DNA from: Craspedostauros australis
Taxonomy: Eukaryota
NCBI GenBank assembly: GCA_030167865.1
Contig: JALAGF010002898.1
Coordinates: forward strand, 1 to 41,858
Length of the DNA stretch: 41,858 bases
Direction: 5' to 3'
Position 1 is the first letter of the stretch. Each line of letters starts with the position of its first letter. This document shows, in pieces, positions 9,489-39,070 of this stretch. Both the position numbers and the translations under genes were made by a program. A model generated the notes under the pieces. The model did no database searches, was not told the origin of the DNA, and saw only the letters and a list, made by a program, of their open reading frames with translations.

Positions 9489-9611
9489 CATAAAGCGAGT
9501 CACGAGTACCTAGTTTAGTCATGAGTTGGTGAACACCTCATTCGTTTCGTTTTGTGACGTTGTTTTCGTTGGCACAACATCCTCGTCATCATAATTTTGG
9601 AATCGACCACA

Positions 9612-11905
9612 ATGTGGATCCCAACGCCAACGATGTTGCTGTCGATCAGCTGCGTCCTCGCTCTGCTTCCAGCGGCGCACGCCTTCACGACGCCGCTTCC
9701 CCACGTGCGCTCGACGGCCTTGTCGGCAACCGCCGATGTCGTCCTCTTCGGTGTCGGCGATTTGCGCGTCGACGACCACGAAGGACTGCGCCGAGCCTCG
9801 CAGAATGCCAACGTCCTGCCCCTCGTCGTGCTCGACGACCGGACGCTGCGCAACATTCCGGGCATGCGCGCCCATCCCATCGAAACGACGCGCATGCTGT
9901 ATCATGCCGTCGAAAGTCTGCGTGACGCGTTGAAGCAGCAGCATGATTTGGAATTGCAGGTCATCACGCAGGCCGAGGCGTTGGCGGATATCGAGGGATC
10001 TCTGCATGTCTGCGATTTGGGTCCGGCCGACAACGCGATGGGGTATGGCGCCTACAGCGATCTCGTATCATCGCGATTGGATGTCGTGCCGTGGTCGTGT
10101 CGTCTGCGCGACGCGCCGTGGAACGCCGTCGGGGCGTTGCCCGCAATGTATCCGGAGTATGCAAAGACGTTCGCGCAGGAGCTCAACGCGCCGGTCGAGG
10201 TGTCGTCCGTGACGTCCAACCTGGAGCTCGAGGCTGGTGCGCCGCTCGATTTGGAGCAGTTCACAAAGCGCGTGCAATCGTTGCTGCAGCTCGATGACGA
10301 GCAATGCGAGGCCCAAACCAACACGGGATTGTACGGCACACATTGGGGTGGCATGGACGCCTCCAGTATCCGCGAAAGCACCGTCCATCGGTTCCTCGAG
10401 ACCTACGTCGATGTTTGCGATCAGCAGGATGCCGCATTTGCCAAGTACCTTCCCACCATTCAAACCAATCCCAACAGTTTGGAGCATGCCACGATGAAGT
10501 GGAACATGGATTTCCAGCCCGACAACGTCAACAACCTCCTGGAGGGCGAGCTTCTGATTCGATACCTGGCCGCTCCGCTGCTCTTTGGCACCATCTCACC
10601 ACGGCGCATCGCCAAGTCGATTGAGGCCAACAAGGATCGGTTCTTCACCAATCCCATCCACACCTTCTTGGAAGGGCAGGAATGGCATCGATTGTTCGCG
10701 GCCCAATGCATGAAGGAGACAGCTGAGAGCACGGCATCGCAGGACCTCCAGTACAAGTACACGCGATGGCATGGATTTCTTTGTCGGTACGCCATGACGA
10801 CACCCACGGAAGACGACGACGATGCCATCCTCTTTGTGCATGGATTCGGCGCATCTGGCACGCAATGGGCCAAGACCATTGAAGAATTGCGAAGCGACAA
10901 CGACGACATCACGTGCTACGCCCCCGACTTGTTGGGTTTCGGACACAGCGAAAAGCCAGCCATCACGTACTCGGGATACACGTGGGAATGTCAGATTGGA
11001 GATTTCCTGCAGGAGTTGGTTGTCAACAGCAATGTCGTCATCGGCGGCAACTCCATCGGCGGATTCACGGCCATGTGCGCCGGTGCCAACGATGCCACAG
11101 TCACGTCGAACACGCTCAGTGCATCGGGTGGACCCGGCACGGGCCAATGCTCAGGTGTGATCCTCATGAATCCGGCCGGCATCATTCAAGACCAGGCCGA
11201 AGCGGCTGCGACGCAAGTCACGACGGCGGAGAAGACGATTGCCGGTCAGTTGGATCCGTTGCGGTACGTACACGTGGTCTTGTGCGTCATATATCTTGCG
11301 TTGCTCAATGTTCTTTGATACTATTGGTATGATGATCTCCCAACATTTTCTCACTCGCTGCCTCCCAACACTTACTCATTCACCTATTCACTCACTCACC
11401 AATTCATCATGCTCTCCACAGCCCACCGCCATTGGCAAGACTGTTGGGCAACGCCATCTTGGCCTACTTGCGCCCACGCATCCAATCCATCTGCGTCAAT
11501 CTGTATCCCACCAATCCTGCGGCCGTCGATACGGTCTTGTGCCAAAACATCCTGAGAGATTCGCTGGATCCCGGTGCCATCAATGTCATGATTTCGGGCA
11601 CCAAGTTGCCACCGTCGCGTCCGTACAATGAGCTGCTGATGCAACGCAGCGAGGGGCCTTTGCAGTCGACGTTTGAGGGGCCGGTGCTGATGCCGCAAGG
11701 CGTGTTGGATCCTTTGAATGACGCCAAGGCACGGTGCGAAGATCTGGGCAAGCTTCGAGCTGGCATCACGATTGACCCGTTGCAGGCGGGACACTGTCCG
11801 CATGATGAAGTGCCGTCGCTGGTTGCCGAATCGATTGCAAAGTGGATGGCGACGACCAAGCAGGAACGCACGGAGTTCTTGCGAGCAAAGGAATTGGTGG
11901 CGTAA
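9612..11905 (+). CDS. Plastid-targeted photolyase-like N-domain + alpha/beta hydrolase (pheophytinase-like) fusion, 2 exons, 711 aa
   Basis: Exons 9612-11263 and 11422-11905 (intron CG|GTACGT...CCACAG|C). Signal peptide + AHA-FTTP. Photolyase-like motifs GDLRVDDHEGL and LAAPLLFGTISPR. Hydrolase motifs HGFG, APDLLGFGHSEKP, GNSIGG (Ser), GVLDP (Asp), AGHCPHDE (His). Confidence 0.88.
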
Positions 11906-12051: not shown

Positions 12052-13532
12052 TCAACGATCTTGCTGCTGATCTCGCATGCAGTTGCATTCGTAATTGTCG
12101 AAATTCTCCTTGTAGTAGCCGCAGACGTCTTCCAATTCGTCGGCAACGTCGATGTCGCCGTTGTACATTGCGAATAGGGAAATGCCGAAGAAGAGGCCGG
12201 TCAAGGCCGTGCCGACGATGAACCACGCCAATCTCCAAGTGAGGGTTTTGATTTTGAGCGAAAAGACCATCACACCGACGACGAGACCCGCGAGTAGTCC
12301 ACCCAGGTGAGCCGCCCAGTCCACTGTTGGTTGACAAGAGAGGATGACGACAAGATCGATGAGTGCGAGTGTGAGTGCGAGTTTGAGCAACAAATGGCTT
12401 GCAACAGTGCATGAAGCAACACACACATCCATCTAAAGTCATATGACGTACCATAGGGTATGAAGGAAAAGAGCATGACGACAACAACGCTGCAGGTGAC
12501 ACCGGCGCACTGCTCCTTGCGAACCTGATGACCGATGCGTCCCTGCTCCGTTTTATCGGACTCGCAGCAGCGGCAGATAACTTCTGCCAGCTTGCCACCG
12601 AACAATCCCATGACGGCACCGGAAGAACCGACGCTGATGGCATCGGGCATGGCGATGACGGAGAGGACGGAGGAACCGAGGGCCGAAGTGAGGTAGATGA
12701 TGAGCCAGTTGGTGCTGCCCCATTCTCGCTCGAAGAAGGCGCCGGTTTCGAGCTGCACGGCGATGTTGCACAGAAGATGGATGACTCCGGCATGCAGCAT
12801 GATGGGCGTGATGAGTCGCCACCACTCGTGCTCCTCCAGGATATTGAAGGCATTCTTTCCGCCCCATTCGCTAAGAGCATCGGGGTAGGGACCGAACATG
12901 GGATTGATGTTGATGGGCGCGACGCCGCATTGGGCCATCATGATGATCAGCACTGCGACCTGACCGACGGAGAAGAGGATACTGAAGTATCCGTACTTCT
13001 GCTTGACGATGTATATGTCCTCTTCCTCACCCTCATCGGATCCATTGGGTTTGAGCGGCTCGTTCTTGCTGTCAAAGATTGAACGGAAGTCCTCGGACTG
13101 GCTGAAGCTGCCCGAGTCAGTACGCTCATGCAGATTCTGGTGCTTCCGCCTGTTCTGCTTCGAACGATGGCTCCCATGGCCACCAACGCTGCCGCTTCCA
13201 TTTCCGGACGATTCACGCCTGTAGGTTTTAGTGGGCGATTCCTTTGAGTGATCGAAGAAGGCATTCCCGCCGCCGCCACCACCTGCTCTCGCTTGGTTAG
13301 ATGAATTGACGGCGCCAGATTCCTGCTGCAGCCATGCCGGAACCTCGTCCTGGAATTGCTGGTAGCTGCTGGTTGGAGAATCACTGTTATTGTTGTTGTT
13401 GCTTGTTGCGGCGGTTTGGCTGGCAGAAGCGGCAGAGTTGCCGCTTTTCGCGCTTCGTCCTCTGTTGGTCCCCCGCGTGCTGCCGCTGGCGGTGCTGGAA
13501 TCCGATTTCTTCTTCTTTCCCCAAGACTTCAT
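12052..13532 (-). CDS. Rhomboid intramembrane serine protease, 2 exons, 450 aa
   Basis: Exons 13532-12452 and 12323-12052 (TATG|GTACGT...CAACAG|TG). Motifs EWWRLIT, HAGVIHLLCN, SVGSSGAVMGLFG (catalytic Ser), VDWAAHLGG (catalytic His); disordered N-terminus. Confidence 0.93.
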
Positions 13533-15155
13533 GATGTATGATGTATTATGTGATGTATGATGTCACTCGTGCTTATCTGCCACTACGAAAGAGTGATTCA
13601 ATGACGTTGCTATCCTCTCGTATCGTACTCTGCTGGGATATCACCGAAGATAGTTTGTGATTGAACCGATACGTATTCTATAATACGATACAGTCTCTCA
13701 ATGCGTTCGAGAGCTCAGCGGTTGAGTTCAATTTGTTGCCGTTGATCTTGACAACAATGGCTTGAACGGCTTCGTTGTTGAAGGCCTTGCTTTGAGGAAC
13801 GTCGTTTGGGAGCCTGAATTCAAACAAGCGATGGTTTGTCTCTTTGATCAATGTCTGCTCAATTGGGTCGGAATTCAATGGAATCGCAACCGTTTGCGGC
13901 CGTTGGTTTGGCAAAAGATGATGGCAGAAAGAATGAAAGATGACGGATGCGTGAGCTGCCGGATGGTTTGTCCGTGAGGTTTCTCGTGGCCCTCCAATTG
14001 CGGTGCTGATTGTTCACAAGATGGGATCATTTGCCATGGTTTTCGTCATCGCATTCATCGATGCGCCCGCTCTCTTGCACTTTCTGGTTGTCCAACCTAC
14101 AACAATGATACTGTGTGGAAGCACTCACCGTCGGTTCGTCTTGGGTGCTGATGTCCAACTGCGCTTGCTATTCTGCCTCTGCGCTTTGTGGTTGCTCTGG
14201 GTTTCAAACTTTGAATGGTGCTGCAAAAGATTTGTGTGGTGCCTTCGTTCCTCTCCTCTCAGCTTGGCTTGGCTGATACTCGCAGTAACTTCAATGGACT
14301 TCGATTGACTTCGTTGCGATTGACTCTTGGCTTTGTTGTTACTTGCGTGCCGGATTGGCTGCGTTGTGGATTGTGAATTGTGGATTGTGTAAGCTGCATT
14401 GTGACCGATTGACGAAGAGCTGTGCCCGATTCACCACGAAGTCTTCTTCGCACGAGTAGTCGTACTCTTGCGTGCTCGTTGGACCCTTTGTTCTCTTTGT
14501 TCCCTCCTCCTTGACTTCTCACCATCGCGGTTGCGCCTTCCCACAACGTCGATGCCCTCCGTCTTTCTTGCCGTTGTCGTTGCTGTCGTTGCTGTTGTTT
14601 CCTGTTGTTGGCACTCTTGGCTCTCTCGTCTCGGCAGTCGTTCGTGTTGAGGATTCCTTCGCTCCGTTCCCACCACCATTGCGTGTGTGACACAATTCAA
14701 AATCATCCGATCCAGTGTCACGCTCGCGCAGGATTATCCGTTGCAGTGTCACAAACACATGAATGCGCGCCACAACCGGAATTCTTTCGCACGAATGCTA
14801 TGAGTCGTGGCATCACGTCAATCACGATCGTATCTTTTTTAACGTTGGTTTCGTGTGTCACAGAAAGCAGATGAGTGAGATGGAAGAAGATGCAAGGGGC
14901 CAAAGATAGCAACAACAAAGGCAACAAGAGCATCAACTCCTACTCCATCGCATCATAGTAGTACGTACGTACAAGGTGGTTGTTCAACATCAAGGCACAC
15001 TACTTACTCCGCACCAGGTAGCAGTCGCCAGGGCAACGACGATGTTGGGCAGAACAGCAACCAACGACATCAGACACATCAGGTTCCTCATCACCTTCGC
15101 AACTTTCTTTTTCTTCAACATCAACAGCTACAACAGCATCAACGTACGCGGCGCC

Positions 15156-15887
15156 ATGTTCGTTGCATCCTTCCCTCGGGCATTCTCCCGAGGCATCTTC
15201 AAATCATCCAACAGCGATACTATGCGAATACAATTGAGTAGACAGCTGTTGATACGACGACCCTTCGCGACGACTACTGCCAAAACTACTGGGACGACTA
15301 CTGCGACAAGTACGGATGCTGCGACGAGTACAACGACTGCCATCCACAGCAGTAGCAACGCGCACGATGATGATGATGATGATGCGACCGAGCACATCAA
15401 ATCCTACACCTTCCAAGCGACGGGTCGTTCCACCGTCACCACCACCCAAACCGTCAACACCAACTTCACCATCACGACGGACATTCCCAAATCCATGGGC
15501 GGCACCAACACGGCACCGCAACCCGTCGAGCTCTTGCTGGCATCCTGGATGGGTTGCACGCAGGCCACCGCCATCTTCGTGGGACGCCACATGGCACCGC
15601 AGCGGCTCCTCATTGATCGTCTGGAATTCATCGACATCACCGCCACGCGCGATCAGCGCGGTGCGATTGGATTGCCGTTGCAGACGCCGCCCGTCACCGT
15701 GTCTCGTCTTCAGCGTATCGAAGGCACGATCCGGGTCCATGCCAAGCGCGGCAAGCCGGTGCCGGTCGAGCAGATGGAGGTCCTCAAGGAGCAGACGGAG
15801 GTACGATGTCCCGTGGCCAACATGATCCTGGCGAGTGGTTGCGACATGGATGTGGAATGGGTGGATGGGAACAGTGCGTCGCAATGA
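15156..15887 (+). CDS. OsmC/Ohr-family protein, probably mitochondrial, 243 aa
   Basis: DIPKSMGGTNTAPQPVELLLASWMGC and RCPVANMI give the two-Cys OsmC-like signature. The Arg/Ser-rich start MFVASFPRAFSRGIFKSS looks like a presequence. The ATG choice is inferred. Confidence 0.85.
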   Translation: MFVASFPRAFSRGIFKSSNSDTMRIQLSRQLLIRRPFATTTAKTTGTTTATSTDAATSTTTAIHSSSNAHDDDDDDATEHIKSYTFQATGRSTVTTTQTVNTNFTITTDIPKSMGGTNTAPQPVELLLASWMGCTQATAIFVGRHMAPQRLLIDRLEFIDITATRDQRGAIGLPLQTPPVTVSRLQRIEGTIRVHAKRGKPVPVEQMEVLKEQTEVRCPVANMILASGCDMDVEWVDGNSASQ

Positions 15888-16146: not shown

Positions 16147-19100
16147 TCACTTCTTGGCGAAGTGCAACTTCGCAGCCTCCAGTTTGGCTCGCATCCTTGC
16201 CTTCCCCAAGGCTGTCGTGGCCTTCCCCACTGGATCGGCGATCGACAAACCATTGACACACCTAGCCATCAGCTCCATTGCCAGCTCGAAGTCCCGCTTT
16301 CTTCGGCAGCTCTTCTCACTATCGTGCGCTTGTGCAGCGAGAATTGCAGCAATTTCAGGATTCAATTCCCTCCTTGCCTTCTGCTTGGGCCGTGTCACCG
16401 GCGTCTTTGCCTTTCTCTTTCTCTTTGTCCGACTTGGTTCGACTTCCACAGCGTCGCTGCTCGGGCTGTGAGTGGGAGATGATAGACTCATGATCAACGG
16501 ACCAACGTCGCAACTGCGCCGCATGCGTTTCGATGTTGATGGTGGAGGAGGAGTTTCCATTCCATGTTCTCCAGTGGCTTCGAGGAGCTCCTTGGGATGC
16601 TTGCTCGACTCGCCGGCATCTGCGACTGCAGTAGCAGTCCCCGACGTCCTCTTCCTGTCCTTGTTCTTTCCTTTGCTGTGCTTCCTCCTCTCATGCTCGG
16701 AGGACTGTGCCCAGTTCGGTGTGTGCGGAGTGGATGGTGAGGCGCCTGACACGGAACCGTTTTTCGAGCGCGCCTTGACGCCGGTCTTGGGATTGTCGAT
16801 GTACGACGGATCATCAATGTCGGAATCCTGGTCCTCGTAGCTCACGTTGCGCAATCGGGGTCTTCTTCCACCGAATTCGATCGAGGCATATTGTGTCAAC
16901 TTCTTGTTGCTCGCAGCTGGCTCAGCCTCCTCCAACGCATGCTGTGCATCCCGTACCGCGGAACTTGTTTTTGGTTTCTTCGATTTCTTTGATCTCTTCT
17001 TGCTCTTGCCCTTTGATGCTTTCTTCGCGCGTTGCGTGGGCTGTTGCACGTCATTCTCATCGTCAGAGAGCAGAGAGCTTCCATCACCATGCCGAGATCC
17101 CTCATCCATTTCCTCTGGTTGGACAGAGGTGGATTCCACGAACAGAGTTCTCAGCCTCCTTCGTGAGCGGTACTTCTTGCCCTCCCCATCGGCAAGCATT
17201 CCAGCCTCCTCGTATTTGCGTTTCCTTTGCAATGAGCGCACCAAGAAAGGGGATTTCACGATTTGTATGTCAGGCGTCTTCGGTGATTCATCTCCAGCGG
17301 ACTTCGGCGTTGAAGTTGCAGGGGTTTCAATGGGGTCCCCAAGCTGATCTGTTCCAAGCCTTGCCTTCGTCGCCACCTTCAGGTCTTTACTGTTTGCAAG
17401 ATCCACAGCCATTGCCCTCGGCGAGAAGGTTCGATCCTTTCGATGAGAACCTCGACCAGCGCCAATCGCCTCCGTGTGGACCTTCATGGAAGCATCATGC
17501 GGAGGATAAGCCGAAGCGCTTCCGTTCTCATCAGCGACAAGGCTCTGTTCAACCTGCTGCACGCTTCTTCTCGTCCTTGTCCTTCTGCTTCTCCGTGTGG
17601 GTGTTATTACTGCATCAGGCACGCCCGGATCAGTCGCTGCGCCCATACCTGCGTTGGCACCATCTTCTTCATCCTCCAGAACTACACCATCTGGGTACGC
17701 TTCTTCGAAAAACGATTCGTAGCGTTCTGGTGTATCATTGATCATGACGACGATTCTGAATTCAGTTGTGACAAACTTGACGTGCCTCGAACGTGGCCCC
17801 TTCTTCTTCTGTCGTGGTGCATGGACTATGGCTTGCAGGAATGGTCTATTCTGGAGTGTTGGACCGGCGTACTCATCCGCCGGCAAATCGCGCAGTGCAA
17901 TCGCTGGCGACTTCCCCGCGGTCGTCCTTCGGCTCTGTTTCTGCTGTTTCTTCTTTGACTTGGACCTGCTCTTCTCTGCTGCTTTCTTTGATTTTGGTGT
18001 CTCTTCATCGTCTGGCATAGTATATTCATGTTGATGCCCATGCTGTTGCCCGCGTTGTTCTGCTTCAGCCGATGGCGCAGCGTGATTGGAAACGTCATCT
18101 TCTGCATGATCAAGGGCGACTTGGTGGCCCAGGGCACGCTTCTCCTCTGAAACTGTACAGTCGCCACTGTCATCATCATAATCGCCATGTTCGGACGGTT
18201 CAGGTGTGTCTGTTGCCATCTTCTGATCGATCGTGGATTTGCTCCTTCGTCTCCGTCTCGCCCTACCGGATTTTAGCTTGCGCTCCGGAAGCTCGGGAAG
18301 AACTATTGGTATACCATTGCTGTCAAGCTCCGGTTTGAGAAAGTCGTCGGGTTCAATCACTCCCACTTCGAAAATCCTCGACTCGTCGGTTTGCTTGTGC
18401 AAGCCTGGGAGCGGCCTCGATCCCAATTCGAACTTCCGTGTCTTGTCGTCGACATGTAGACAGAATCCACCATCCCACACAGGAATTTTGTCGTCTCCAA
18501 AACCAAGCAAGCGAGACTTAGAACGGTACGCCAAGCAGAGCCATTGCATGAAGAACTTGATCTCAAAGTCCTTGAGAGGTCCCACGAGGCTTTGGGTATG
18601 AAGGAGGGCACGTAGTGCTCTCTTCAGCTCCCGTTCCTTGAATTCATCCTCGTCGTCGTAATCGCGATTGCGCAGGGCCGCTCCGAACGCTGCAAGCCTG
18701 CAGCGTCTGGCATCTTCGCATCGACTCTCGGGGGTGCTGTCGATGATGCCAAGTTCCTCCTTGGTCATGTTGGACTCCGTCTGTCCAGGTTCCAGCAGCG
18801 GCTCCCAGGATGATCCATTGGCCACCCAGGACTCTGCCCATCGCCAGGCCCAACCAAGCGTCTTCATTACATTTATGGCCTGATTCAGCAGCCGCGAGGC
18901 ATGGGCGAACGGCATGGGCCCATCCGCCGCCGAGAAGTTCTTCTTCGCTCGTCTGCGTTCGATTTCGATCAGATCTTCCAATCTGGCTCGGAGGTTGTAG
19001 TTGTTGCCTCCATGGTCGTGGCACCTCACTACGAGCGCGATTCCGGGCGCGAGTACGAGTATCATACAAACAGCAGACAGATGAGACATGAGGGGTGGGG

Positions 19101-22100
19101 CAAAGTGGGTGAGCAAAAGTGATCCGCAAGACAGTTGAGTTCGTCGTTGGATATCCAGTTGGAGAGCATTCGTAAGATGGCGAATCATGTTGTCAAAACT
19201 AGCAAGGCCGGCGCAACAGCTGCAAACATCGCGGTGATTTCCTTCCACACACTTACGATAGAAAGGATGCTCCAGCTCGTCATTATGATTGGTTTCATAT
19301 CCCGCCTGCCGAGCGCAAGTAATGTGAAACACCCATGGCATTCGCTTGTTGCCCCATGCTCGGCAGTCGTCGGCAGTGCACTTGAGTTTCAGCCCATTGG
19401 TCATGCCGCACAGACCACACCTCCGTTGCGAGAGGACGTGTCCTCTGCCATTCGACATGATGACGTTAGCACAGTCCACCTTCCCCGTCCTTTGGTCGAC
19501 GATTAGATCTCGATGCCAACTGCACGCAGAGACGTGACACGACGCAATGCAGGCGGACGCAAAAGCAAAACAAATAAACATGAGTGCGAGGTAATCGCAA
19601 CAACGGCAACGAAAGCGATGGAAAACGACGGAAAAAATTGACAAGAGTGAGATGAATGGCGAGCAAGAGCAACGATGGGGATCTCCGACATGTTCAATTG
19701 CACACGATAAATCAATAGCATCTCGCTGAGCCACACTACGTAGGATATCCATACGCACAGGCATCGCACACACGCTGACCGATCCAACTTACTACGCGCA
19801 TGCGGCGTGACACCACAGATCTTGTGCGAAGAGAGTCCTTTTGAATTCATTGTGAGCCTTCTTCCAGTAGTTTTGTCGGTTGACGGGCTTGGCGAATGCT
19901 TCCAGCAACCAGCCACCGGCTTGAAGGCAGATATTACATTTGGGTGTGACAAACTTTTTGCCCTTCCCGTCGCTTTTCTGTTTGCCTGCTTTGCCCTCCT
20001 TTTTGTCGTAAGCGGTGATTCTGTCCTTACTTGCTTTCCGTTCGCCCAATTTCTTGTCGACGTATTGGCATTTGACGCACACGATGCTGCGCTCAAATTC
20101 TTCGGTCTGCGGCAGCATGCAGGCAACGCAGCTCACGGCGTGACAACGCACGCACCGGCTAAGGCCTCGTCCGTCCTCTTCCACCTCATCGCAAACCTCG
20201 CAACGCATGCCTGCCAGTCGACGAGTAAGGATATCTTTGTAGAATGTTTTCTCGTAGTCCCGATTGGCGAGATATTGTCGGCGTTCCTTTCCATTGAGTT
20301 TGTTGAACTGCTTTGGGGGCAGTGGCAGTGGGGCCGGCTTGGGTTCTGGAGGGAATTGCTGCGAGGCCTTGATCAGATCTTCGATGGGAACGGGATCTCG
20401 TTTGCGTGTCTCCGGGTCGACGTTGGAATGCTCAGGGCAAAGGAGAGTCCAGGGATTGTCGGCGACCGGGCCTTCGTAGTTCTCGCCGTGGATCACCTCG
20501 CAAACCCCGGACAGTCGAGCACACGTGACGTGGCAGTAATTCTTGCATCCTTCGAAGCGGCACTTCTGATACGCCCCTCTCTGCCCCTTGCAGATGAAAC
20601 AGCGAACGTTCAGGCGCATGAAGTACACCTTGAGGTCCGCAACGTCCTCCACGATGTCTGGATTCCCAGATTCGATGAAGTTGAGGCCTTGCCACTTGGC
20701 GCAAACGTTGTGAACCCACTTCGTGATCACCGTCCCGTCGTTGGCCTTGATCTTTTTCTTCGTGTCGGTGCGAATGAAGGCGCCCTGCTTGATTGGACAC
20801 AGCTCACAGCAGATCGGGAGCGGCGGGGGCGTTATCTTCGTCGGTGGCAGGATGTTGAGCTTCGTCTTCCGCGCGATGAGCTGCGACATCTTCTCCCGTT
20901 TGAAGTGCTTGCATGCCACGCAGTAGTAATCACCTTCGGGGATCTTTTCCACGCCGTAGCAGAACTGGTGCACCGGGACGTTGCATGCCTCGCAGAAGAG
21001 AATCTGATTGTCGGGAGTCACCTCGCCGTCATCACAGATCATGCAAACCGCGTCCATGTCTTGCTCTAGCTGCTTCTGCCATGCGATGTCCATCTCCTTG
21101 CGACGTTCGATAATTCGCTGGTTTTCCATCAGCAACCGCTTTTCGCGCGCCCGTCGCTGGGTCGCCTCGGGACCTTCGAAATCTTGTCGAAGCTGAATTG
21201 CCTGAGCGAAGAGCTTGCGCGTCGTTGGCTCCAACCCGTCTTCGAGCTCCTTCAGCATTTTTTGCTTTTCGAGCAATGTCTCGAGGAGATCGTCAACGTC
21301 GCTACCATCCGTCGTTGCTGGTGCTGCCGGAGGGTCGGAGGCTTCTATTTGCGGAAAGACCTTGAAAATATCGAGGTCTAAATGCCCCTTCTTGGATGGA
21401 GGCAAGATAAATGACTCACCCTCCTGACCATCAGGGGCAAGCAGGGAGAACTTTGGTATATCATCCTCCTCGTTGCCAACAGTAGCACGTATCGCAGCAG
21501 TGGCGGTGCGTTGATTTCCAACTGGGGCACTTGCGAAGTTGTTGTCTTTCTTGCGCGTGAGCAGGTGCTTGTTCCGCGAAGATGATTTCAATTTCAAACC
21601 GAAGTACTTGCCAACAGTGTCCACGTTTGGGAATCGCGCAATGACGCGGTCGTGCCTCTGGATCTCGGCGTCGTCCTCCTGCCTCTCATGCTCGACACCA
21701 GTATCTTTGCCATTCTTGGCGTCCTCGCTGCCCTCGATATCATCGTTTCCGTTGGTCCGGTCGCCACCATCGACGGTTTTGGTGATTGGAGTGCTCACAT
21801 GCTTGCACATTTGGAATGTGTAGCGGGAGCTGCATTTCTTTAGATCGCAAATGAGAGGAACGTCTGCCTGTTCATGGAGGCACGGTAGCTTTGACATGCG
21901 AAAGTGCTTTTGCAACATCTCCTGCTTGTCTCGAGGGGCTTCAATCATGGCGTACCATACATCGTTGGCACGCGTATGCTCCAAGGCCAGGGTTATCATC
22001 ACAAGCAATACTGAGTCGTTGACCGTGATCTCCAAGTGCTGCGATTCCAGCCGGGGCCGTTCGATTGCGATGGAAGTCGTTGTATCAGTTGGTTGCGCAT

Positions 22101-25100
22101 CAGCCGGTTGCTTGTCAGTCTTGTCACCTGTCGCGGTCGTAGTTGTTTCACCATTCGCAGCGATTGCATATGTTGATTTTGCGCCTGTGTTTGTGTCTTT
22201 GTTGGGGAGGACGTCTTCTGTAGATGGTGGCAATGTGGCGGGGTTTGTGGCTGTCGCACCATCGTCCTTCTTATGCTCATGCTCCGCGCTCGATTTCACC
22301 GCATCCATTTTCGGTTCTTCGTTGGTTACACGCAGCGCGGTGGCAGGCTCCACTTCCATCGCGGATTGTGGTCTCACCACCTCCTCGTCCTCGTCCTCCT
22401 CTTCGACCTGCTCGACGAAGATCACATCTTGCACCATCGAACCAACGATCTGCGACGTTTCCTCCATTGTGCATTCCAAGTATTTTATAGTTTTCAGTGT
22501 CCCTGGAGATTTGGGACTGTTGGCAGACTTATCGTGGCGTGCTTCCGATTTGACAGGAGTCGCTATTCGGAGCTTGTCGTCAACGGCTGTCGTCGTTGCT
22601 GGTATCGTTGCTGCGGCTGTTGCTGTTGTTGCCGACGGTGTTGCTGGCGTTGCCGTTGCGGATGGTTTAGCATCCAATTCCGAGGAACTCGGCAGACTCT
22701 GGGTTTTTGACGGAAGGAGGGAAGTTGCGGAAAGGTCCACGGCCACATCGTCAAGGGTGGAGTCCTTGTCGTCGTTGTCGTCTGTGAACGGTGTGTCCAT
22801 ATCGTCCAACTCCATGACGTCCTCGTGCGACATGGCGTCGTCGCAGGGCGATGCTGGTGTGGGAACCTCGCCTCTACCAATGGCATCGACGTAGGGCTTC
22901 CAGATGCGTTTGCGGTTGTTGACGAACCAATTCCGTAATCTGCTGCTGCCGATGCCTGTGTCCTTCATGATGCGAGCCTTCTCCTCAGGGCTGGGGTATG
23001 GTTCATCGATGTGTTCTGGCGACAGCATCCATGCCTTGAGATAGTCCACCGTCGATTGTGGCAGCCAACTCTTTTTGCGCGAGGGAGAAACCCGTGCTCC
23101 TTTGGTGGTCGATGATGACGACCGTCTTTTGCCAATGGAGTTGGAAGTTGTTGAGGTAGCGGCGCCGCGTGTGAGCCCAGTTCGCCTCGGTGGTTCTTCC
23201 TCGATCTCATACTTGGTGGACGAGCTCGATCGAAGACCTCTACCCGCTTCCGTCGCTTCTGCCGCCGCTGGTGATGATGTAGGTGTTTGTGTCGCGGCCG
23301 GCGATTTGGACGTCTGCATCTGCGACCGCTGCGCAATGGGAGGCGATCCATCAAAGATTTGAGTTCTGTGCGTCACGGGCCGATCTGTGGGATATGCCAC
23401 ACCGTTGATCAGCATCACGAGTTCGGATTCCACTTGTCCCAGCAAGTCCGGTTGCATCTGAGCCCAAAGAAACGAGTAGGTGAGCATGGCAGCCGGTTGC
23501 TTCGTCTTGGCATCCAATGCCACCACGCCGAATGTGAAGGATGGGAGGTTCGAGAAGACGCGGTTGTTTCCGATGGTCCAGTGCGTTCGTTGTTTGCCTG
23601 CTTTGGAAGCGAATGAGTTCCAATCCACGAAGTCGACATGCTCCAGATCGCTCTTGTTTCGCACGCACTCCTTGGCTTTGCTGACTATGGTGCGCCACAT
23701 CCCGCTTCGAGTCTGCTGGGCCAGCAGCTTGTTGAATTGAGTCATTTGCGCCGAGATGGGCGATTTCATGGTGGAACGGTCGAATCCGTTGGCGAGGAAA
23801 TGGCGGTACACGGGGTCCAGCCTATCGAGCATCGTCTGGTCGTCTTCATCGCCGAGCGGACTGACCTTGATCCGGTTCAACCTGCGCTTGCCTGGTGCCG
23901 GAAGATGCTGGGCTGGGTCCGGCAAGGAATTGCGGATCATGGGCACCGTGTTGGCGTCGATGGTGGTGGGGAAGACGGGGGGTCTGGACTTTGGGCTAGG
24001 AATAGGTATGTCGAAGCCAAGGAGACGACCGAGGAACGATATAGGATACGTGTCGGGTTCGTAGAAAATAATCTGCGTCGGGGCAAGCAGTTCGGGACCC
24101 ATGACGGGTTGATCGTTGCGTGTCGGTGGTTCCACGCCAGGCACAAGCGCCTCGAGGAGTGGATTGACAAGCCGTTGCGGGAATTCATCAGCAATGTGCA
24201 GTGGAGGGCCGGATGATCGAGGAGGCGCCTTGCGACTTGATGCGCCGTGCGCACCCTTGCGCCGACCTCTCCCTCTGGATGGCACTTCCACCCGCTGTCG
24301 TTTTTTGTAGTTGGTCTTTGATTTGCGCGATGCGGCCACTCCGGTTGCTTTTGTGGATTTATTGGTGATTCGCCTGGACTTGGTTTGCGTTGGTGGCGCC
24401 TTTGCGGAAACTGGTGTCGTCATGGTCAAGGCGTCGACATGCAGCGGTGTGGAGAAAGTGGTCGAGGAGAAGGTAGACGAGGCCGGCGTGCCAATTCCTT
24501 TTCCTGCCGATCTCGTTGATGCTGGCGTTGGAGTCGATGTATACGTTGGCACGCCGGGAAATGGCGATGACGACTCTGCTGCGGTAGCCTTTCTCGATTT
24601 GGTTCTGTTGATTCTCGTCTTGGCTGATGTCTTGCGTGTCTTTCCAGCGCCTCTTCCCTTACCTGCCCCTCGACCTCTGCCAGGAACCCTGCGCTGACTG
24701 CTCGGAGCCTTCCTGCTGATGCCCGTCTTGGTTGGGGTGGACTCGTATATGGTGGCAAACGCCAGCGGGTTGTCTTGTGCAGCAGCGTTCGTGGAAGGTT
24801 CTGGCGCATGCTGTGGCACAACCTTTGCCAATTTCTTGAGATCTTTCATTCCCATGGACGGCCGACCTTTGGTCTTCGCGCTGGAGGATCTGGTGCCATT
24901 GCTGATCGGAGTTGCGAAACCCAACGGATCCGATCGCGGTTGTTGCATCGCCGTCATGAGCTGCGACGTCGACGATGCGTTTTGGTTATAGGAAGAATCA
25001 TTCTGGAATCTCGAGATAGAACTCGACGACGGAGATGCGAACATGTTCACTTGCGAATAGCTGGAGGCCGACTGAGCACTTTGAATCATCGCCGATGACC

Positions 25101-25776
25101 CCTCGTTGCTGTGACCGGTCCAATTCTCGGCGTCAGCACCGGCTGCAGTTGCAGCAGTGGTACCACTACCACTGCCACTTCCACTACCACTTCCATTTGA
25201 TGCCCGACCAAAGGTGTTTTGAAACTTTCGTCCACGACGAAGCACCTTCGGGAAAAGATCGACGGCGGTCGCCTTGAGAGTATCGGAGTCTGCAAATGAC
25301 ACATCCATGCCACGAGCATTGACGCTCGTGCTGTTCGCGCTCGCCGCCAACGCAACAGGCACATCCGGTGGCAAGGCAACGCTGGTGGAAATGATCGCGA
25401 GGCCTCGATCTGCAATCAACGGGGTTGCTCCTTGCGCTGCTCGCGTGGATGTCCCCGTTCTGGGGGTCTGTCCCAACGCAGTGCCAAGATGAGCGATGAT
25501 ATTGTCGGACGCAGATGCGGCCACTGCAGAAGGCGCCAACGGCCTTGGGCTGAGAGCATCGTCCGGCAATCCGATGGGCGTTGGTTCCAGCACATCCATA
25601 TCCGCGACGAAAGGTGCTGCAACGTTGGTATCGGCATGGAAGCTCATGTCGCCGCCTTGGTTGGCGCGTCTGGTGCTGTTCGTGGCCTCAGCCGATCCCT
25701 GAAGAGACCTCGCGCGATCCTCCCCAGGCCTGTGCGTCTTTGCAGTGACCTGATTGCCCATTTCTCCTTCTGCCAT
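16147..25776 (-). CDS. Very large chromatin protein: TALE/KN homeodomain + two PHD-Zn knuckle-PHD (PZP-like) modules, 3 exons, about 3042 aa
   Basis: Exons 25776-19793, 19519-19257 and 19028-16147 (both donors GTAAGT; 9129 nt in frame). Homeodomain LKAW...PYPSPEEK...LRNWFVNNRKRIWKP at 22894-23079. BRPF/JADE-type PHD CMICDDGE...NQILFCEACNVPVHQFCYGV..IPEGDYYCVAC plus ePHD at 20428-21054. A second PHD/ePHD spans both introns. The start codon is uncertain. Confidence 0.85.
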
Positions 25777-25882
25777 CTCAGTTGCTTGTGGAGTGAGTTC
25801 ACGTGTGTTTGGCGCAGTGATGATATGATGCCTGCGCTGCTCTCCCACCAAGCAACGACAGGCACAGTTGGAGTGGCGCAAT

Positions 25883-25959
25883 GATGCAACGGGTGATGCA
25901 ATGGGTAATGCAACGAGTGATGCAATGGGTGATGCGATGAGTGATGCGATGAGTGATGC
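25883..25959. repeat. About 6.4 x 12-bp minisatellite (GATGCAATGGGT/GATGCGATGAGT) upstream of the PZP gene ATG
   Basis: Tandem units read directly; a looser GATGTCAATGAT repeat follows at ~26125-26190. Confidence 0.85.
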
Positions 25960-27948
25960 CCTGTGACTTGATCTCGGACGCGGCTTCTGCTGTTGCTCTG
26001 TTCTGATGATGCTGCACTGCTGTTCTCGCGTGGATGGTGTGGTTTGCACGCGCTTCACTGTAGCGCAAAGTCAGCTTCGGAGTGGAATGGGTGATGCTTG
26101 CAACACAGCTCAGCACGCAGATCTTGATGTCAATGATTGTGATGATGTCAATGATTATGATGGAGTCAATGATGAAGTCAATGATGTTGATGGGACTATC
26201 CCCCTTCTTGGTCGGTTGGTGTGGATCCACTGTTTTGGGGGGTTTGGAGGATGCTGCACTGCGTTGGGCACATCTCACCGTTCTCCGTTGTCGCTTCACC
26301 GCAAATCGCGAAGATTGGGCTCACCCAATTTTTTTCGTGGCTCTTTCTCCATCTCTCTTTTGGGCCTGTATGTCATAGTTATGTCTCAAATCATATCGCA
26401 TGCGACAAATAGGATTCCTCACAGGTGGACAGATGTGTGGACAATCTGGGACGTTGGAGTCGATTGAATCATCGATTCACCATCCACATTTTCGATGTTC
26501 CCTTTCTTGCCTTGGCAGTCGTGTTTTTCGTACTGTGGCTGGTCCATGTCGGTTTCGCGCCCAGCAAACTGCCAGAAACGGCCAGAGGCCGCCATCACCA
26601 AACCGATTTCTGGCTCGTCCAAAGCCCACGATCGATCGGCCCTCCTCCCTCACCGCCCTGGGCCATTCCAAAGACCATGTCCATGCAACCATCCCGATTC
26701 CTTCACCACTCGCCGTACCACATGCAACGGATGTTACACCACCTCGCCATTTTTGCGTTTGGCTTCATTTTATGTCAGTTTTGCATCGCGAACGTACTTA
26801 TCTCGACAACGCGCCCACCTTTTTCCAAACTAACTGCGCCCTTCGTTTCTCCACTTGTCGCCGCAGGTATGTGCATCATGCGGGCCTCTGAGATGCATGG
26901 CAAGCCAACTTTCCACATTCGGCCATGGTTGCACGCATCGTGCTGGGGATTTTGTGTTTGTGTGAGATGGAGGCAACAAAACGCAGACGAAAGGAGAAGG
27001 TGTCGCAAACTCGCAGAAGCAAACAATGCGCACTTGTCGCGGGCTTCGATTCCTCGGATTGAGGCATTGGTCCGACCGTCGTCAGGTTGCGGAGGTTTTC
27101 TTGTAGCCTAACTTCGTGTCTAGACAAACTTCTGTCGTTGTGTGTTGCTCCATCATTTAACTGATTTAATGTGTATCCTTGGTCATGTCGGCAAGGGTGC
27201 AGTTCCGCCACCCTGTCTGATGGTATGTTGGTCACATTGGGTGTAGGAGGCCTTCCAGACGATCTTCTTTCGATAGATGCAACACCTTGTGCTCGGGGAG
27301 GTGTCTGGAAGAGGGCACCGTGCATGTGCGGATGCGGTTCTGCGATTTTGATCCAAAAACTCTCCTGGAGGGGGAGGCGCAGAACGATGCTCGAGGGATG
27401 TAGTGAAGATGGCGATGAGGGAGGCATGCTCTAGAGTTGGCAGTCCTACTTTCGTCTGCTCCGATTGATTCGGTGGGAAGGTGTTGTGGTTTGATCCTTC
27501 TAGCGTTGCTCGCGGTGCTACGGATGATGTTGATGATAGCAATGGCAGAAAGTGATGCAGCGAGCAGACAGCGTTTCTCGCTGGGTGCCTTCTGATGGCC
27601 CTCTTCGTTCTGATTCCGAATTGCCAGCTGCGGCCTTGGGGGAGTGCCCCTAGAGTGGAGGTCGCGTGACAGTCTAGAGCCCATCGGATCTCTCCTGCCT
27701 ATCGTTCGTGGAGAAGGCTTCTGTACTGTTGTCGTTGTTCAGGCGCGCATTGTTCAATACTATTCTAGTACATCATGATGGAGTACACACTGCCCACCAT
27801 CGCATCCATCGAGCACAAGAGGAGGACATATCTGCTCCATGTTGACAGCGACAGCGCTGGATGCAGTCATACGTGGAGCATTCGTCGAGTAGGATGAAAG
27901 AGTTCATTCTTTAGTCGTAGTCTGTCCATGCAAAGGACTGTTGCTCCC

Positions 27949-28006: not shown

Positions 28007-30205
28007 TCATCGTCTGGCGTTGCAGATGAACTCGCGTGGGAGATGGGATAGTTCCAGACTGTCGTTGATACCTTTCGTTGCAAATGGTCGCCTCGGCGGA
28101 GTCCGTTCATTGCCACCGCCACCATCGCCAGCACCACCATCACGGCCGCCGCTGTTGCTGCCGCGCAAGATGTCCATCCAGTCTTCATCCGATAGCATGG
28201 ACCTCTTCATTTGCTGCAGTACGATTTCGTTGACGAGGCCTCTCGAAGAGCACAGGGAGAACACCTCTTTCAGGTTCTGTGTCTGCTTGGGCTGCCGCAC
28301 CAACCGCCGCGTCGCTTTGCAAAAATGGGCGAACGTCGTCGACGTGGGTTCCAGCGTGCGCGCTCGGGGCTGCCTTGGCCTTGACTTTCCATCATTCCTC
28401 TTCGTGCGGTTCATCCTCGGCGTCTGCTTCGAGCCACCGCTGCGATGATCGTTGCCTCCGTCGCGCATCGTCGTGCGGAAGGCTTCCACCGCGATCTCGT
28501 ACGACTTTCGTTTCAGCTCCTCGTCGCCGAAGGCGTTGGCGCACGCCATGAGCAGCGAGTTGTAGGAGATGATGTCGGGATGGCATTCGGCACGCGGGTG
28601 CTGCTTCATCTCGCATAGCACGTGGTACGCGCGCAGGGCCTTGTCCGCGCGAGGGCTGCGGGCGTAGGCATTGAGGAGGGCGTTCCAGTGGAAGTTGGTC
28701 GGCTTCAGCTCGATGCGTCCGTCCGCGTGCTGTTCTTCCAGCTCGATCAGCAGAGAGTGGGCGGTCCCGCAGGCATCCCATTTGCCAGATTTGGCCAGCG
28801 CCGTGATGACGGAGGTGTAGGTTTGAGAGTTGGGCCCCATGCCGTCATCCTCCAAGGCTTTCATCTGCTCCAGCAGCTTCATCGCTTCGTCGGCCGCGCC
28901 GGGGTTGTCGGCGCCAGATATCTTGGCCCATCCATCGATGACGCACGAGAATGCGATCGTGTCTGGCTTCATCTGCACGTTGCCGTCCTCGTATGCCTGC
29001 ATGAGATCGTTCAAGATTTTTTGCGCGCGCTGCGGCTGACCTGCCTTGGCCAACGAGGACATGATGGCCGTGTAGGTGAAACGATTCGGCTCGATTTGCG
29101 GATCATCGCGACGCAGCCGTTCGAAGATCGCGCGCGCCTTGTAGGGCTTGCCGCACTTGGCCCATCCCTGGATGACCGAGTTGTAGGTGTAGATGTCCGG
29201 CTGCACGCCGTGATTGCCAGCCTCATTGATCACCACCATGTGCTCTAACAGATCCTGCGCACGCTGCGCTGCCTGTCCTGCATTCGGTCCTTGCACCTGC
29301 TGCACCCATGCGTAAATCACTGTGTTGAACGACGTGGTGTCCACCATGACGTTCGACTTGAGAGGATCCATCATGTGTCGCAGCAGCTTCTCCGCCTTCA
29401 ATGCCATGCCCTTGTCACGAGACTGGGCATACGAATACAGCACGGCGTTGTACGTGACGACATCCGGCTGCAGCAGACCTCCCTTCTCCTCCATCTGATG
29501 CAGCAGCTGGACGCAATGGCGATGGTCGCCTTGTCGGGCGTACGAGATCATGACGGTGTTGAAGGAGATGACGTCGGCCTGGGCGGCGCTGTGGCTGTCG
29601 AGCATGCCCTGCAGCAGCTCGTAGGCCTTGTCGGGATTGTCATCCTCCTTCCATGCCTTGAGCACGGTGTTGTAGGAGACGGTGTCCGGCGACACATCGT
29701 AGTACCCCTCCTGATGCAGTGCTCGGATGCGCTGCAGCATCTCCTGCGCACGAGGAGCTGCGCCTTGCTGCGCCAGCGAATCCAGATTCAGATTCAGCGA
29801 TATCAGCGGGTTGTTTCCCTGTTCCAGGCTCTGCTGTCGGCGTTCGTTCGCGTCGACGCGTGGGTTGCCGTTGCCAACTGCGCAGAGTCGCGTCCTCAGC
29901 GGCTGGCGATTGCGCCAAACTGCCGAGTTGGAGGATGCCACATTGTGATTGCTACTGTTACTGCTGTTTCTGTTGCTGTTGGTATTGCCGTTGTGATTGG
30001 CTGACGACATTCGTTGCTCTCTGCATCCACCCTCTACCATGATCATCTTCACGCTCGTGCCTGTGGGTCCTTTGAAATGTGCGAGGCTTCGTTGGCAGCT
30101 GCCATGATGGGCAAACGATTCCACCGAGACTGAGAACAGGCACAACGACGCGATTGCGAAGCATGGGGCGAATGTCACGAAGAACGCCTTTGTGGGACGG
30201 CCCAT
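28007..30205 (-). CDS. Plastid-targeted pentatricopeptide repeat (PPR) protein, 732 aa
   Basis: Signal peptide MGRPTKAFFVTFAPCFAIASLCLFSVSVES-FAH. About 10 repeats of type PD.vsYNtv..a.ak: PDTVSYNTVLKAW, ADVISFNTVMISY, PDVVTYNAVLYSY, PDIYTYNSVIQGW, PNRFTYTAIMSSL, PDIISYNSLLMAC. Confidence 0.92.
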   Translation of the reverse strand: MGRPTKAFFVTFAPCFAIASLCLFSVSVESFAHHGSCQRSLAHFKGPTGTSVKMIMVEGGCREQRMSSANHNGNTNSNRNSSNSSNHNVASSNSAVWRNRQPLRTRLCAVGNGNPRVDANERRQQSLEQGNNPLISLNLNLDSLAQQGAAPRAQEMLQRIRALHQEGYYDVSPDTVSYNTVLKAWKEDDNPDKAYELLQGMLDSHSAAQADVISFNTVMISYARQGDHRHCVQLLHQMEEKGGLLQPDVVTYNAVLYSYAQSRDKGMALKAEKLLRHMMDPLKSNVMVDTTSFNTVIYAWVQQVQGPNAGQAAQRAQDLLEHMVVINEAGNHGVQPDIYTYNSVIQGWAKCGKPYKARAIFERLRRDDPQIEPNRFTYTAIMSSLAKAGQPQRAQKILNDLMQAYEDGNVQMKPDTIAFSCVIDGWAKISGADNPGAADEAMKLLEQMKALEDDGMGPNSQTYTSVITALAKSGKWDACGTAHSLLIELEEQHADGRIELKPTNFHWNALLNAYARSPRADKALRAYHVLCEMKQHPRAECHPDIISYNSLLMACANAFGDEELKRKSYEIAVEAFRTTMRDGGNDHRSGGSKQTPRMNRTKRNDGKSRPRQPRARTLEPTSTTFAHFCKATRRLVRQPKQTQNLKEVFSLCSSRGLVNEIVLQQMKRSMLSDEDWMDILRGSNSGGRDGGAGDGGGGNERTPPRRPFATKGINDSLELSHLPREFICNARR

Positions 30206-30776
30206 CCTTGCGATCACACTGCACTGTGTCGGTGAGTGCGTACGTATAATATTATAGAATAGAATAATATAATAGAATATGGGTGAGTGCTTGCGTAATC
30301 GCAATCGAATGGCAGTCACAAGATTGTTGGCAGTGCCCCCGTTGCTGTCACAAGGATACCAGTGTTCGTGGGAAGGAACAGACACGCGATCTCCCGAAGT
30401 CGCCTATTTCCCGACATGGTTGTGAAACCACGACAAACAACAGATGGCAGACATGATCGAGACTTTGAACTTGGCACCTTTTTGGCGCCTTTTCATTGGA
30501 AACCCGGAGTCACGAGCGATGTCAGCATGTGAGACACGAATTGATTCGTGTGATTGGGGAGGTCGAATTCAATGGAATACTATGGTCGGTGTGGTGTAGG
30601 GAAACGGAGGAAGAGATTCGGGGCAGTTGCAACTCTGCGAGTTGTACTCGTAGAATATAATATAATACTTTGCAGGACGTGCACCTCCGCGTCTTCTAAT
30701 TCCGTGATACCAGAGACCTTCGCAGGGCACACCATCCTGGCCTGATCTACTCTGTTCTTCCCCTGATGCGCGTAGT

Positions 30777-31886
30777 CTATAATCTGTCCTGAATGACGTG
30801 CTGCCTGATTTGCTGCCAATCTCTGTCGAACACGGCCTTACGCAAACGAGTTGCTTCACCTTTGCATTCTTCATGGATGTTGAATCTCTTCCTTCCAACA
30901 ACGTCGAATCCTGGATACGAACACTCCACGTACCCGCGCGTGACACCTTCGTGGGCGTCGCCTGGGAAGACGAGCATCCTGAACAACGAATCGTCAGACA
31001 CCGTCACCTGCACCTCTCCTTTGCGAATCCTTCCATCGCATCCACCGCAGATGGCCCTGGCTGTGTTGGAAACCTTGCGCTTCACTTCAAACAGCCCTCT
31101 CCATCTACCTCGCACTGGGCACAATTGTTCGATTTTGTTTTCACGTTCAAAGTAGGCAACGTCGTAATCGAAGCCATCGTTGTCGGCGTCGTCATCGTCG
31201 TCATTTGTGGGCGATTCGTATGAGGCGCCGACCTTGCGCAGTCTGCCATCATCAACGCATGTCTTCAACGCCTTCTTGAGACTGTTTCGGGTCCTGTGAT
31301 CTTCGAAGGACATGTCAAAGTGATCGGCCAATTCCTTTTTGATCTTTGGCAAGGATAGCTTGGGTTCGTTGGAAGCATTCATGACGAACACAACCTTGGA
31401 GACGGCTGATGCTCGCTTGCTTGGTTTCTTTGGTATTATTTGTTGCGGGAGCGTGACCGTGTCTCCTGCATTGGTATGGGCTGAAGTTCGGTTGTCCCCG
31501 GTTCCCCGCAAGAGCCTGAGCAGTTCTGCCACTGTCACGATCGGAATGCCTTTTGACACTGCCGTGCTGTACTTCGAAGATCCAACTCCCGTTAAGCGGC
31601 CGTAGTCGTTGCGTCCTGTCCGACCCAACACGAGGTGCGTCGTCTTGCCGGAGATGGCTTGAGTGACCTTGACGCCCTTGGCCTTCAAGGATGCCTCGAG
31701 TGTAGGCTTCCTGTCGAAGATTCCCGTCAACACAACTCTCCATTGATTCATCGGAAGCGATGAAGTCACGGTGGCGGTGGGCGAATCGTTTTGATCAGCA
31801 TGGTGCTGCCCAGCCCTAGCCCTTTTGGTGGGAGGATCTGGGCTGTCATCGAACAACGATGATCCTTGTGCAGCTCGTTTGGGCAT
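30777..31886 (-). CDS. BRCT + linker-histone-like (H15) winged helix + PARP-type zinc finger protein, about 369 aa
   Basis: BRCT: VVLTG...GVKVTQAISGKTTHLVLG...SKYSTAVSKGIPIVT. H15-like: LSLPKIKKEL...LKKALKTCVDDGRLRKVGASY. zf-PARP-like: ARAICGGCDGRIRKGEVQV...IHEEC. The start at MPKR is inferred. Confidence 0.75.
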   Translation of the reverse strand: MPKRAAQGSSLFDDSPDPPTKRARAGQHHADQNDSPTATVTSSLPMNQWRVVLTGIFDRKPTLEASLKAKGVKVTQAISGKTTHLVLGRTGRNDYGRLTGVGSSKYSTAVSKGIPIVTVAELLRLLRGTGDNRTSAHTNAGDTVTLPQQIIPKKPSKRASAVSKVVFVMNASNEPKLSLPKIKKELADHFDMSFEDHRTRNSLKKALKTCVDDGRLRKVGASYESPTNDDDDDADNDGFDYDVAYFERENKIEQLCPVRGRWRGLFEVKRKVSNTARAICGGCDGRIRKGEVQVTVSDDSLFRMLVFPGDAHEGVTRGYVECSYPGFDVVGRKRFNIHEECKGEATRLRKAVFDRDWQQIRQHVIQDRL

Positions 31887-32458
31887 TTCGGTGGATTGGC
31901 GAAGCAACTGGGTTGGATGAGTGATGAATGATGAATGGGTTGGACTGTGATTTGTGTGGAAGAAATGCGCAACCAAACCAAACCAAAACACAAGACACCA
32001 TGCACTCGCCACACACATTATCGTCGGAATGAAGTTTGAGGCCATCGTTCAGATTCGGGATTGGATGCGACACCACACACGACTCGATCCTCCCAATCCA
32101 CGCCTGCGATCTCCAAACGTGTTTCGCCGAAGCCGTGGACTGAGAGGCGTGAGAGTGCGAGCAAGGGAGAGGATCATCACGGCGAGATACGATGGCGCCA
32201 ATGACCAAACAAACAACACGAACACTGACGAATCCAACAAGGAGAGCAACGGATTGGAGGTCCTACAATAAATTGTACGGAGCTTGACTGCTGCACTGCT
32301 GCGTGAAGCTTACCTGAATCATTGCGCCTTGAAGAGGGTCAAAACCGTTCACTCTTGATTCCACAAGATTCATTTCCACACATTCGAGCAGGTGCCTGCG
32401 AATCAATCCATAAAATAATAATAATATTTGTTACACCAACCTACCCCGCACGTACAGA

Positions 32459-38454: not shown

Positions 38455-39070
38455 CTTGGATCCTCCTTTCCTCCTTAGTCTATGCGTTGAACCACAAAGG
38501 TGGATGTAAGGTCAAAGCCAGTTCGGACGCCGAAGCATCGAAGCATTGCGGTTTGTGAGGAGCGTGATTTCGGCAGACAGCAAATGCGAAGTTGCATCGT
38601 GTTTGGGATTTGCGCTTTTTGTTGGTGTTGGTTGATGTGTGGTGAGATTCGCGAAAGTATTTACGTCACATTGTTACATCCGACTGATGCACGGTCAGAC
38701 AAATGAAATATCATTCTAAAGAATCTATGCGAGTGCGACTACAACGACCTAACCACGTCAGATGTGCAGACCAACGTTGTTGTCGCAGTTTTCCCGCGAT
38801 CTGTCGCACATCATCAAAACAACGTCACATCATGTCAACGGATCCGAAGAATCGGCATCAACACTGCTGACACCTCGGTGGATTTGCTCAGCAACACCAT
38901 CCACATCCACCGACTTTGCACTTCCGAATACGAGAGCATTGGAAGCATCGTTGTGTCTGTCAGAATCTATTGCACTCTGCACTCGCACTCACACTCACAC
39001 TCACACTCACACGGATCCGCAAAAAGAAGTATAATATTATAATATATTATACCAATAGATAGACAACATC

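Follow-up and report, generated by a model that had tools for sequence, protein, structure and literature searches.

A TALE homeodomain carried inside a GNAT-like domain of a double-PZP chromatin protein from the diatom Craspedostauros australis

Contig JALAGF010002898.1 of the Craspedostauros australis assembly GCA_030167865.1 (66 Mb in 6734 contigs), analysed here as one entire stretch of 41,858 nt (the window), carries a minus-strand gene at 16147-25776. The gene is predicted from the genomic sequence to encode a 3042-residue protein that combines a TALE homeodomain, seated within a split GNAT-like domain, with two PZP modules (PHD1, zinc knuckle and PHD2), and comparison with diatom homologs indicates that this family has gained homeodomains repeatedly. 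The gene model has three exons and two introns, starts with the ATG at 25776, ends with the stop codon at 16147-16149 and has no internal stop after splicing. Exon 1 is a run of 1994 codons without a stop and contains the homeodomain, the coiled coil and the first module (PZP1), while the two introns, both of the form GTAAGT...AG, join two long minus-strand frames. The fusion of homeodomain and PZP modules in one protein of ~3000 residues, proposed by the first-pass annotation, is therefore real, and we regard this architecture as solid. The position and phase of intron 1 are shared by 10 of the 13 ortholog loci checked; in two of the remaining loci the search pattern was in the wrong frame, and the third has no intron there and simply reads through. 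Both spliced junctions agree with full-length homologs. Since the length of intron 2 is a multiple of three and the intron is stop-free, its retention would keep the frame. It is scarcely credible that the fusion is an assembly chimera or that the homeobox is spliced out: although the assembly is fragmented and the sequence upstream of the homeobox contains a single weak donor-like GTATGA, the frame is unbroken over both junctions and the two GNAT halves follow each other in the right order, the assembly contains a single copy of the gene (one match among four candidates), and P0049, a homologous fusion of homeodomain and PZP, comes from a complete MMETSP transcript. Nor is the homeobox a misplaced copy, being 63-64% identical to its closest paralogs.

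The homeodomain scores 46 bits against the Pfam Homeobox_KN model (residues 921-957; cutoff 24), and among solved structures MEIS1/2 come closest (E 3e-12). It has the two hallmarks of the TALE superclass, a PYP extension of the loop that joins helices 1 and 2 and the WFxN recognition helix. The WFVNNRKR helix, which had looked intact at first reading, is indeed complete, and the same motif occurs in 115 of 124 single-homeodomain relatives; 37 of the 45 conserved columns are kept, including W48, F49, N51, R53 and the entire helix. The G+C content at third codon positions of the homeodomain (0.72) resembles that of the folded domains, compared with 0.53-0.57 in the linkers. Four further TALE-like homeoboxes were found in the C. 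australis genome (37-64% identity). The DNA match to a paralog is limited to the homeobox (76% over 173 nt), and the flanks gave no significant match to paralog DNA; the surroundings of the homeobox showed neither donor flanks nor a mobility signature. The protein resembles the stand-alone TALE factors of stramenopiles, such as Phaeodactylum EG02213, Pseudo-nitzschia 26070.1 (supplement 6 of PMC6368402) and the brown algal ORO/SAM, in the WFVNNRKR helix, in a PYP loop two residues longer than that of MEIS and in its identity to the paralogs of its own genome. Unlike them, it keeps the ~60-residue domain alone, inside a large chromatin protein, and lacks their C-terminal motif. Pfam scans of exons 1 and 3 (E<=0.05) matched none of the companion domains of KNOX, BELL, MEIS and PBC proteins (MEINOX/KNOX1-2, ELK, POX, PBC).

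On either side of the homeodomain lies a conserved block, and the two blocks are predicted to be the halves of one GNAT-like domain, which was detected neither by Pfam nor by profile search of PDB sequences and had no usable match in the ESM Atlas. In an AlphaFold model of the corresponding region of a short-linker ortholog (L008; mean predicted local distance difference test score, pLDDT, 69.8) the top Foldseek match was a GNAT (E 2e-4), and VIA-align superposed the model on NatD with Z 10.9 and a root-mean-square deviation of 3.5 over 160 aligned residues; the 50 matches listed for this model are, by title or family, of the GNAT fold. The model of residues 530-1700 of the window protein builds the same fold from both halves, with the homeodomain folding separately within disordered linkers, and aligns with SpNatD (Z 10.5, deviation 3.7, 159 residues) over model residues 145-788, that is, across the insert. 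The nearest folds include NatD/Naa40, Ard1 and GCN5, which share fold and topology with the domain; no solved GNAT exceeds 14% sequence identity to it. The consensus of GNAT motif A is Q/RxxGxG/A. Its position corresponds to beta4-alpha3 (PMC7809356), and within the 14 residues before alpha3 the motif was found in none of 52 aligned sequences, in which the beta4-alpha3 loop ranges from 10 to 461 residues; in the window protein a variable insert takes the place of this coenzyme A (CoA) loop. In P0040, two Myb/SANT repeats are inserted within the C-terminal half (residues ~850-1030) in place of a homeodomain.

Based on these predicted structures and alignments, the GNAT-like domain is probably an inactive pseudo-acetyltransferase. 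An active atypical acyltransferase, or a sensor of CoA or peptides, which would turn the protein into a self-contained writer, reader and DNA binder, appears improbable to us. The fold is intact and confidently modelled, the predicted neighbours NatD/Naa40 and GCN5 would fit such a role, and H1267, R1269, Y1275, F1292, M1294, C1310 and D1311 are nearly invariant. Against this stand the missing motif A, the variation of the loop and the fact that the domain is also broken by a homeodomain in P0031 and by the Myb repeats of P0040.

PZP1 is of the BRPF/JADE type and exceeds the Pfam cutoffs with four models (PHD_2 37.5 bits, zf-HC5HC2H_2 36.6, zf-HC5HC2H 30.2, PHD 27.6). Its zinc ligands are complete, and it keeps the acidic N-terminus of BRPF1 PHD1 (DMDAVC versus DEDAVC). 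The second module (PZP2) likewise has all its zinc ligands, with Cys instead of His as the fifth PHD ligand, and its Pfam scores lie below cutoff; as its PHD lacks the acidic stretch, it probably does something else. The coiled coil noted in the first-pass annotation was recovered as a helix in the AlphaFold model and is present in all homologs. The AT-hook core is RGRP; the GRG tracts, initially likened to AT-hooks, contain no such core and a single KGRP, and Pfam found no AT-hook in them. The C-terminal (CT) domain that follows PZP2 gave no match among PDB sequences and no useful match in Pfam or the ESM Atlas. Coordinates of all features are collected in Table 1.

Table 1. Features of the homeodomain/PZP gene, listed in the direction of transcription
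Feature	Position	Strand	Description
Exon 1	19793..25776	-	Residues 1-1995, from the low-complexity N-terminus through the GNAT-like domain (split by the homeodomain insert), the coiled coil and PZP1 to the first half of PZP2
Motif N1, unnamed	23962..24189	-	Residues 530-605, upstream of GNAT core; conserved, 89/99 homologs; no Pfam match
GNAT-like domain, N-terminal half	23386..23859	-	Helices and beta1 to beta4, residues ~640-797; AlphaFold pLDDT 81-97; Z 10.5
Insert, mostly disordered	22030..23385	-	~450 residues in place of the beta4-alpha3 loop of motif A; apart from the homeodomain, pLDDT <50
TALE homeodomain	22885..23073	-	Stramenopile WFVNNRKR type, residues ~902-964, inside the insert; Pfam, MEIS2 E 3e-12
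GNAT-like domain, C-terminal half	21802..22029	-	alpha3, beta5, alpha4, beta6, beta7, residues 1250-1325; pLDDT 91-97; 95/99 homologs
Long helix/coiled coil	21052..21288	-	Residues 1497-1575, running into PZP1; 99/99 homologs; helix in AlphaFold model
PZP1	20416..21051	-	PHD1, zinc knuckle, PHD2, BRPF/JADE-like; Pfam; BRPF1 6u04 E 2e-19; fold match
PZP2, divergent	19012..20202	-	Spread over three exons; ligand map, profile matches, weak Pfam matches
Intron 1	19520..19792	-	273 nt, phase 2
Exon 2	19257..19519	-	Gene model and Pfam scan
Intron 2	19029..19256	-	228 nt; multiple of three, stop-free; spliced spacing agrees with homologs
CT domain, unnamed	18403..18990	-	~200 residues after PZP2; conserved, 31/99 homologs
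C-terminal tail and stop codon	16147..18402	-	Basic, low-complexity, residues 2292-3042

To place the protein in its family, we collected homologs with the coiled coil plus PZP1 as a query, which yielded 99 proteins from 1753 candidates. All named homologs come from diatoms (Nitzschia, Cylindrotheca, Seminavis, Fistulifera, Mayamaea, Chaetoceros and Corethron). Custom profiles detected the coiled coil and PZP1 in every one of them, the C-terminal GNAT half in 95, N1 in 89 and the CT domain in 31; most homologs without the CT domain end at intron 1. The GNAT-like domain, coiled coil, PZP1, PZP2 and CT domain thus form the common diatom backbone. The first-pass annotation noted that PZP modules normally occur as one copy and read the protein as lineage-specific, but the double PZP recurs among the homologs and is the diatom norm; what proved to be lineage-restricted is the homeodomain, found in only eight of the 99 homologs on this widespread backbone. 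No homeobox was detected in the fetched DNA of 80 metagenome loci, a set that overlaps in part with the proteins and in which truncation is frequent. The orthologs P0013, P0025, P0026, P0028 and P0070 have two or three additional PHD fingers at the C-terminus, which the window protein lacks, and locus L017 contains tandem copies of the scaffold gene (94-2404 and 6697-11536), the upstream copy being the more divergent.

None of the eight homeodomain carriers has the domain in the slot used by the window protein. It precedes N1 in P0048 (Cylindrotheca closterium), P0049, P0055, P0032 and P0051, lies between N2 and the GNAT strands in P0023 and P0033, and in P0031 appears, by eye, to sit inside the beta2-beta3 hairpin, which together with the window protein gives four insertion slots. 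The insert of the window protein spans 453 residues, compared with 42-242 residues in 43 homologs; because these have such short linkers, absence of a homeodomain from that slot is observed directly. In the host tree, which omits the truncated P0090, the window protein belongs to a 44-row clade with Nitzschia and Cylindrotheca (Shimodaira-Hasegawa-like approximate likelihood ratio test support 99), and the carriers occupy five places, or six changes if P0057, which may be truncated, is counted. Approximately unbiased (AU) tests were run on 34 of the 99 rows, selected to include every homeodomain carrier along with neighbouring rows and representatives of the backbone. They rejected a single clade of all carriers (p 2e-157), the joining of the two N-terminal-slot groups (p 4e-54), and the grouping of the window protein with the Cylindrotheca group (p 6e-59), the P0023/P0033 pair (p 5e-4) or P0031 (p 1e-38). 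Repeated gain of the homeodomain is therefore well supported by slots and host tree.

One ancestral fusion followed by many losses and by moves within the gene seems very improbable. Such a history is compatible with the tree of the homeodomains themselves, in which 70 columns leave most branching unresolved and one clade of inserts is not rejected (p 0.15), and some absences from the N-terminal slot may be false, as many homologs are partial. Yet it would cost 18 losses plus at least three relocations, it meets the directly observed absences at the slot of the window protein, and it leaves the Cylindrotheca-group homeodomains much nearer to stand-alone genes (up to 80-84% identity) than to other inserted ones (35-60%). 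By identity, the nearest out-of-group neighbours of each inserted group are stand-alone TALE proteins of the WFVNNRKR type; for the window homeodomain the closest of them is 64% identical.

TALE homeodomains were also found in other proteins. A scan of 32 longer homeodomain matches gave ADA2, zf-CW, HMG and TCR as named partners, besides weak spurious matches. P0271 (888 residues) is an ADA2 protein (ZZ, SANT, TADA2A-like) with a WFVNNRKR-type homeodomain before the C-terminal region (residues ~647-718), and P0131, P0144 and P0143 combine a TALE homeodomain with zf-CW (plus HMG) or TCR/CXC domains.

On balance, we lean toward the reading that a single-copy, Jade/BRPF-like nucleosome-reading scaffold of diatoms gained a TALE homeodomain repeatedly, and that this gave it sequence-specific targeting. 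The homeobox would have been copied about five times independently from a stand-alone TALE gene and kept because it was useful. KNOX and MEIS homeodomains bind TGAC, and the window homeodomain, held on tethers of ~100 and ~285 residues, may bind a TGAC/TCA-type site in nearby DNA. In Phytophthora, TCA is reported in the motifs of four of five homeodomains, and each of the five genes shows high expression in mating (PMC11267843). If PZP1 works like its BRPF1 counterpart, in which the unmodified H3 tail is described as the ligand of PHD1 and DNA as that of the knuckle-PHD2 part (PMC4705663), it would read the unmodified H3 tail through PHD1 and contact nucleosomal DNA through knuckle-PHD2. The GNAT-like domain could serve, without catalysis, as a platform for interactions, its disused CoA loop leaving room for inserts, and, together with the coiled coil and the CT domain, it might recruit partners. 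The homeodomain would then bias the scaffold, with any acetyltransferase complex that it carries, toward the targets of the stand-alone diatom TALE factor. A broader generalization is possible but tentative: diatoms may repeatedly hard-wire one TALE DNA-binding domain into scaffolds of acetyltransferase complexes, with some five insertions into the double-PZP protein with its pseudo-GNAT domain and one or more into ADA2, as selected replacements for non-covalent recruitment.

Several observations speak against the favoured reading. About 92% of the homologs (91 of 99) lack a homeodomain, which makes it dispensable for the family. Most inserted homeodomains are long-branched and fast-evolving (0.6 for that of the window protein; median 0.094), and the homeodomain tree is equivocal, as noted above. 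In the window homeodomain eight conserved positions are changed, clustered at the turn before helix 3 and at the loop His, which is replaced by Glu. Compared with its own paralogs it has a pairwise ratio of nonsynonymous to synonymous divergence (dN/dS) of 0.34-0.37, but this value includes the slow stand-alone branch, so that selection on the window copy may be weaker than 0.35 suggests. Finally, Pfam matched no bromodomain, PWWP or EPL1/EPC domain in the window protein; with no EPL1/EPC detected, membership in a MYST complex stays conjecture, and the coiled coil and CT domain, which sit where EPL1/EPC would flank a PZP, could be divergent versions of it.

Some of these points would fit a tolerated passenger, that is, a duplication-prone homeobox of ~180 nt that lands in disordered loops of large genes and decays slowly without any targeting role, which we consider rather unlikely. 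The restriction of the paralog match to the homeobox, the long branches, the loss of the WFVN helix in the P0023/P0033 pair, the variable positions of the inserts, their rarity among homologs and the occurrence of TALE domains in other multi-domain proteins are what such insertions would leave. On the other hand, dN/dS is below 1 (95% intervals of pN/pS within 0.30-0.85), the recognition helix has stayed intact at a synonymous divergence of ~0.8, and the named fusion partners, weak spurious matches apart, are chromatin or DNA-binding modules.

Among known systems, the closest are the MYST scaffolds BRPF1, JADE, AF10 and Nto1, to which PZP1 is related by sequence (6u04 E 2e-19, JADE1, Nto1, AF10) and by fold; the acidic PHD1 N-terminus is shared with BRPF1, and public names of orthologs include 'Protein Jade-1'. 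The usual partners of BRPF, JADE and Nto1 scaffolds are a MYST enzyme, ING and EAF6. The window protein differs from these scaffolds in its two PZPs, GNAT-like domain, CT domain and homeodomain, besides the missing EPL1, bromodomain and PWWP matches. The plant proteins HAT3.1/PRHP have a single PHD, a non-TALE homeodomain and neither PZP nor GNAT, and are of unrelated origin; plant IDM1/ROS4 combines PHD with GNAT. HAT3.1/PRHP are nevertheless alike in combining a PHD finger with a homeodomain in a single chain (PMC10693458, from a title cited there). Arun et al. list stramenopile TALE factors, and in their table 'PHD' occurs once, for a protein of Aureococcus, not a diatom (PMC6368402); the same source gives only one tentative orthologue of ORO/SAM, which are marked by flanking domains of their own and by heterodimerisation, outside brown algae. 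A term search of PMC6219170 found no treatment of diatoms. Among the top listings of open-licence literature we found no description of this architecture, which is not proof of its absence from print; since the fusion is present, unnamed, in public annotation (P0048, P0055), it appears to have been overlooked rather than to be absent.

Upstream of the gene there are short tandem repeats at 25882-25959 and 26125-26186, the latter holding four copies of TCATTGAC. Autoregulation through these copies was considered and rejected, as four against 2.7 expected is within chance for the window. Elsewhere in the window, Pfam scans identified a BRCT domain and a linker-histone-like match in one open frame (30780-32048, minus strand), and in another (9558-11315, plus strand) the N-terminal domain of photolyases together with an alpha/beta hydrolase domain. 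The other neighbours are ordinary genes (5327-6961, 7584-9485, 12273-13562, 14910-15884, 28010-30403 and 34948-38511) for GT61, TLDc, rhomboid, OsmC, PPR and IF-2/eIF5B proteins.

Few cases are documented in which the same DNA-binding domain has inserted convergently at different loops of a single conserved chromatin scaffold, and each gain here comes with near relatives without a homeodomain that can serve as controls. The analysis also brings to light a pseudo-GNAT domain, so far unannotated, in a gene found throughout the sampled diatom groups. The brown algal relatives of diatom TALE factors control the life cycle, and the scaffold is a candidate cofactor for the diatom factors; the idea is testable because Cylindrotheca closterium, which is in culture, carries a fusion (P0048). 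If the broader generalization were true, the stand-alone diatom TALE factor would work via these complexes, possibly in life-cycle control, and the fusions would be natural replicates of a general chromatin cofactor becoming gene-specific.
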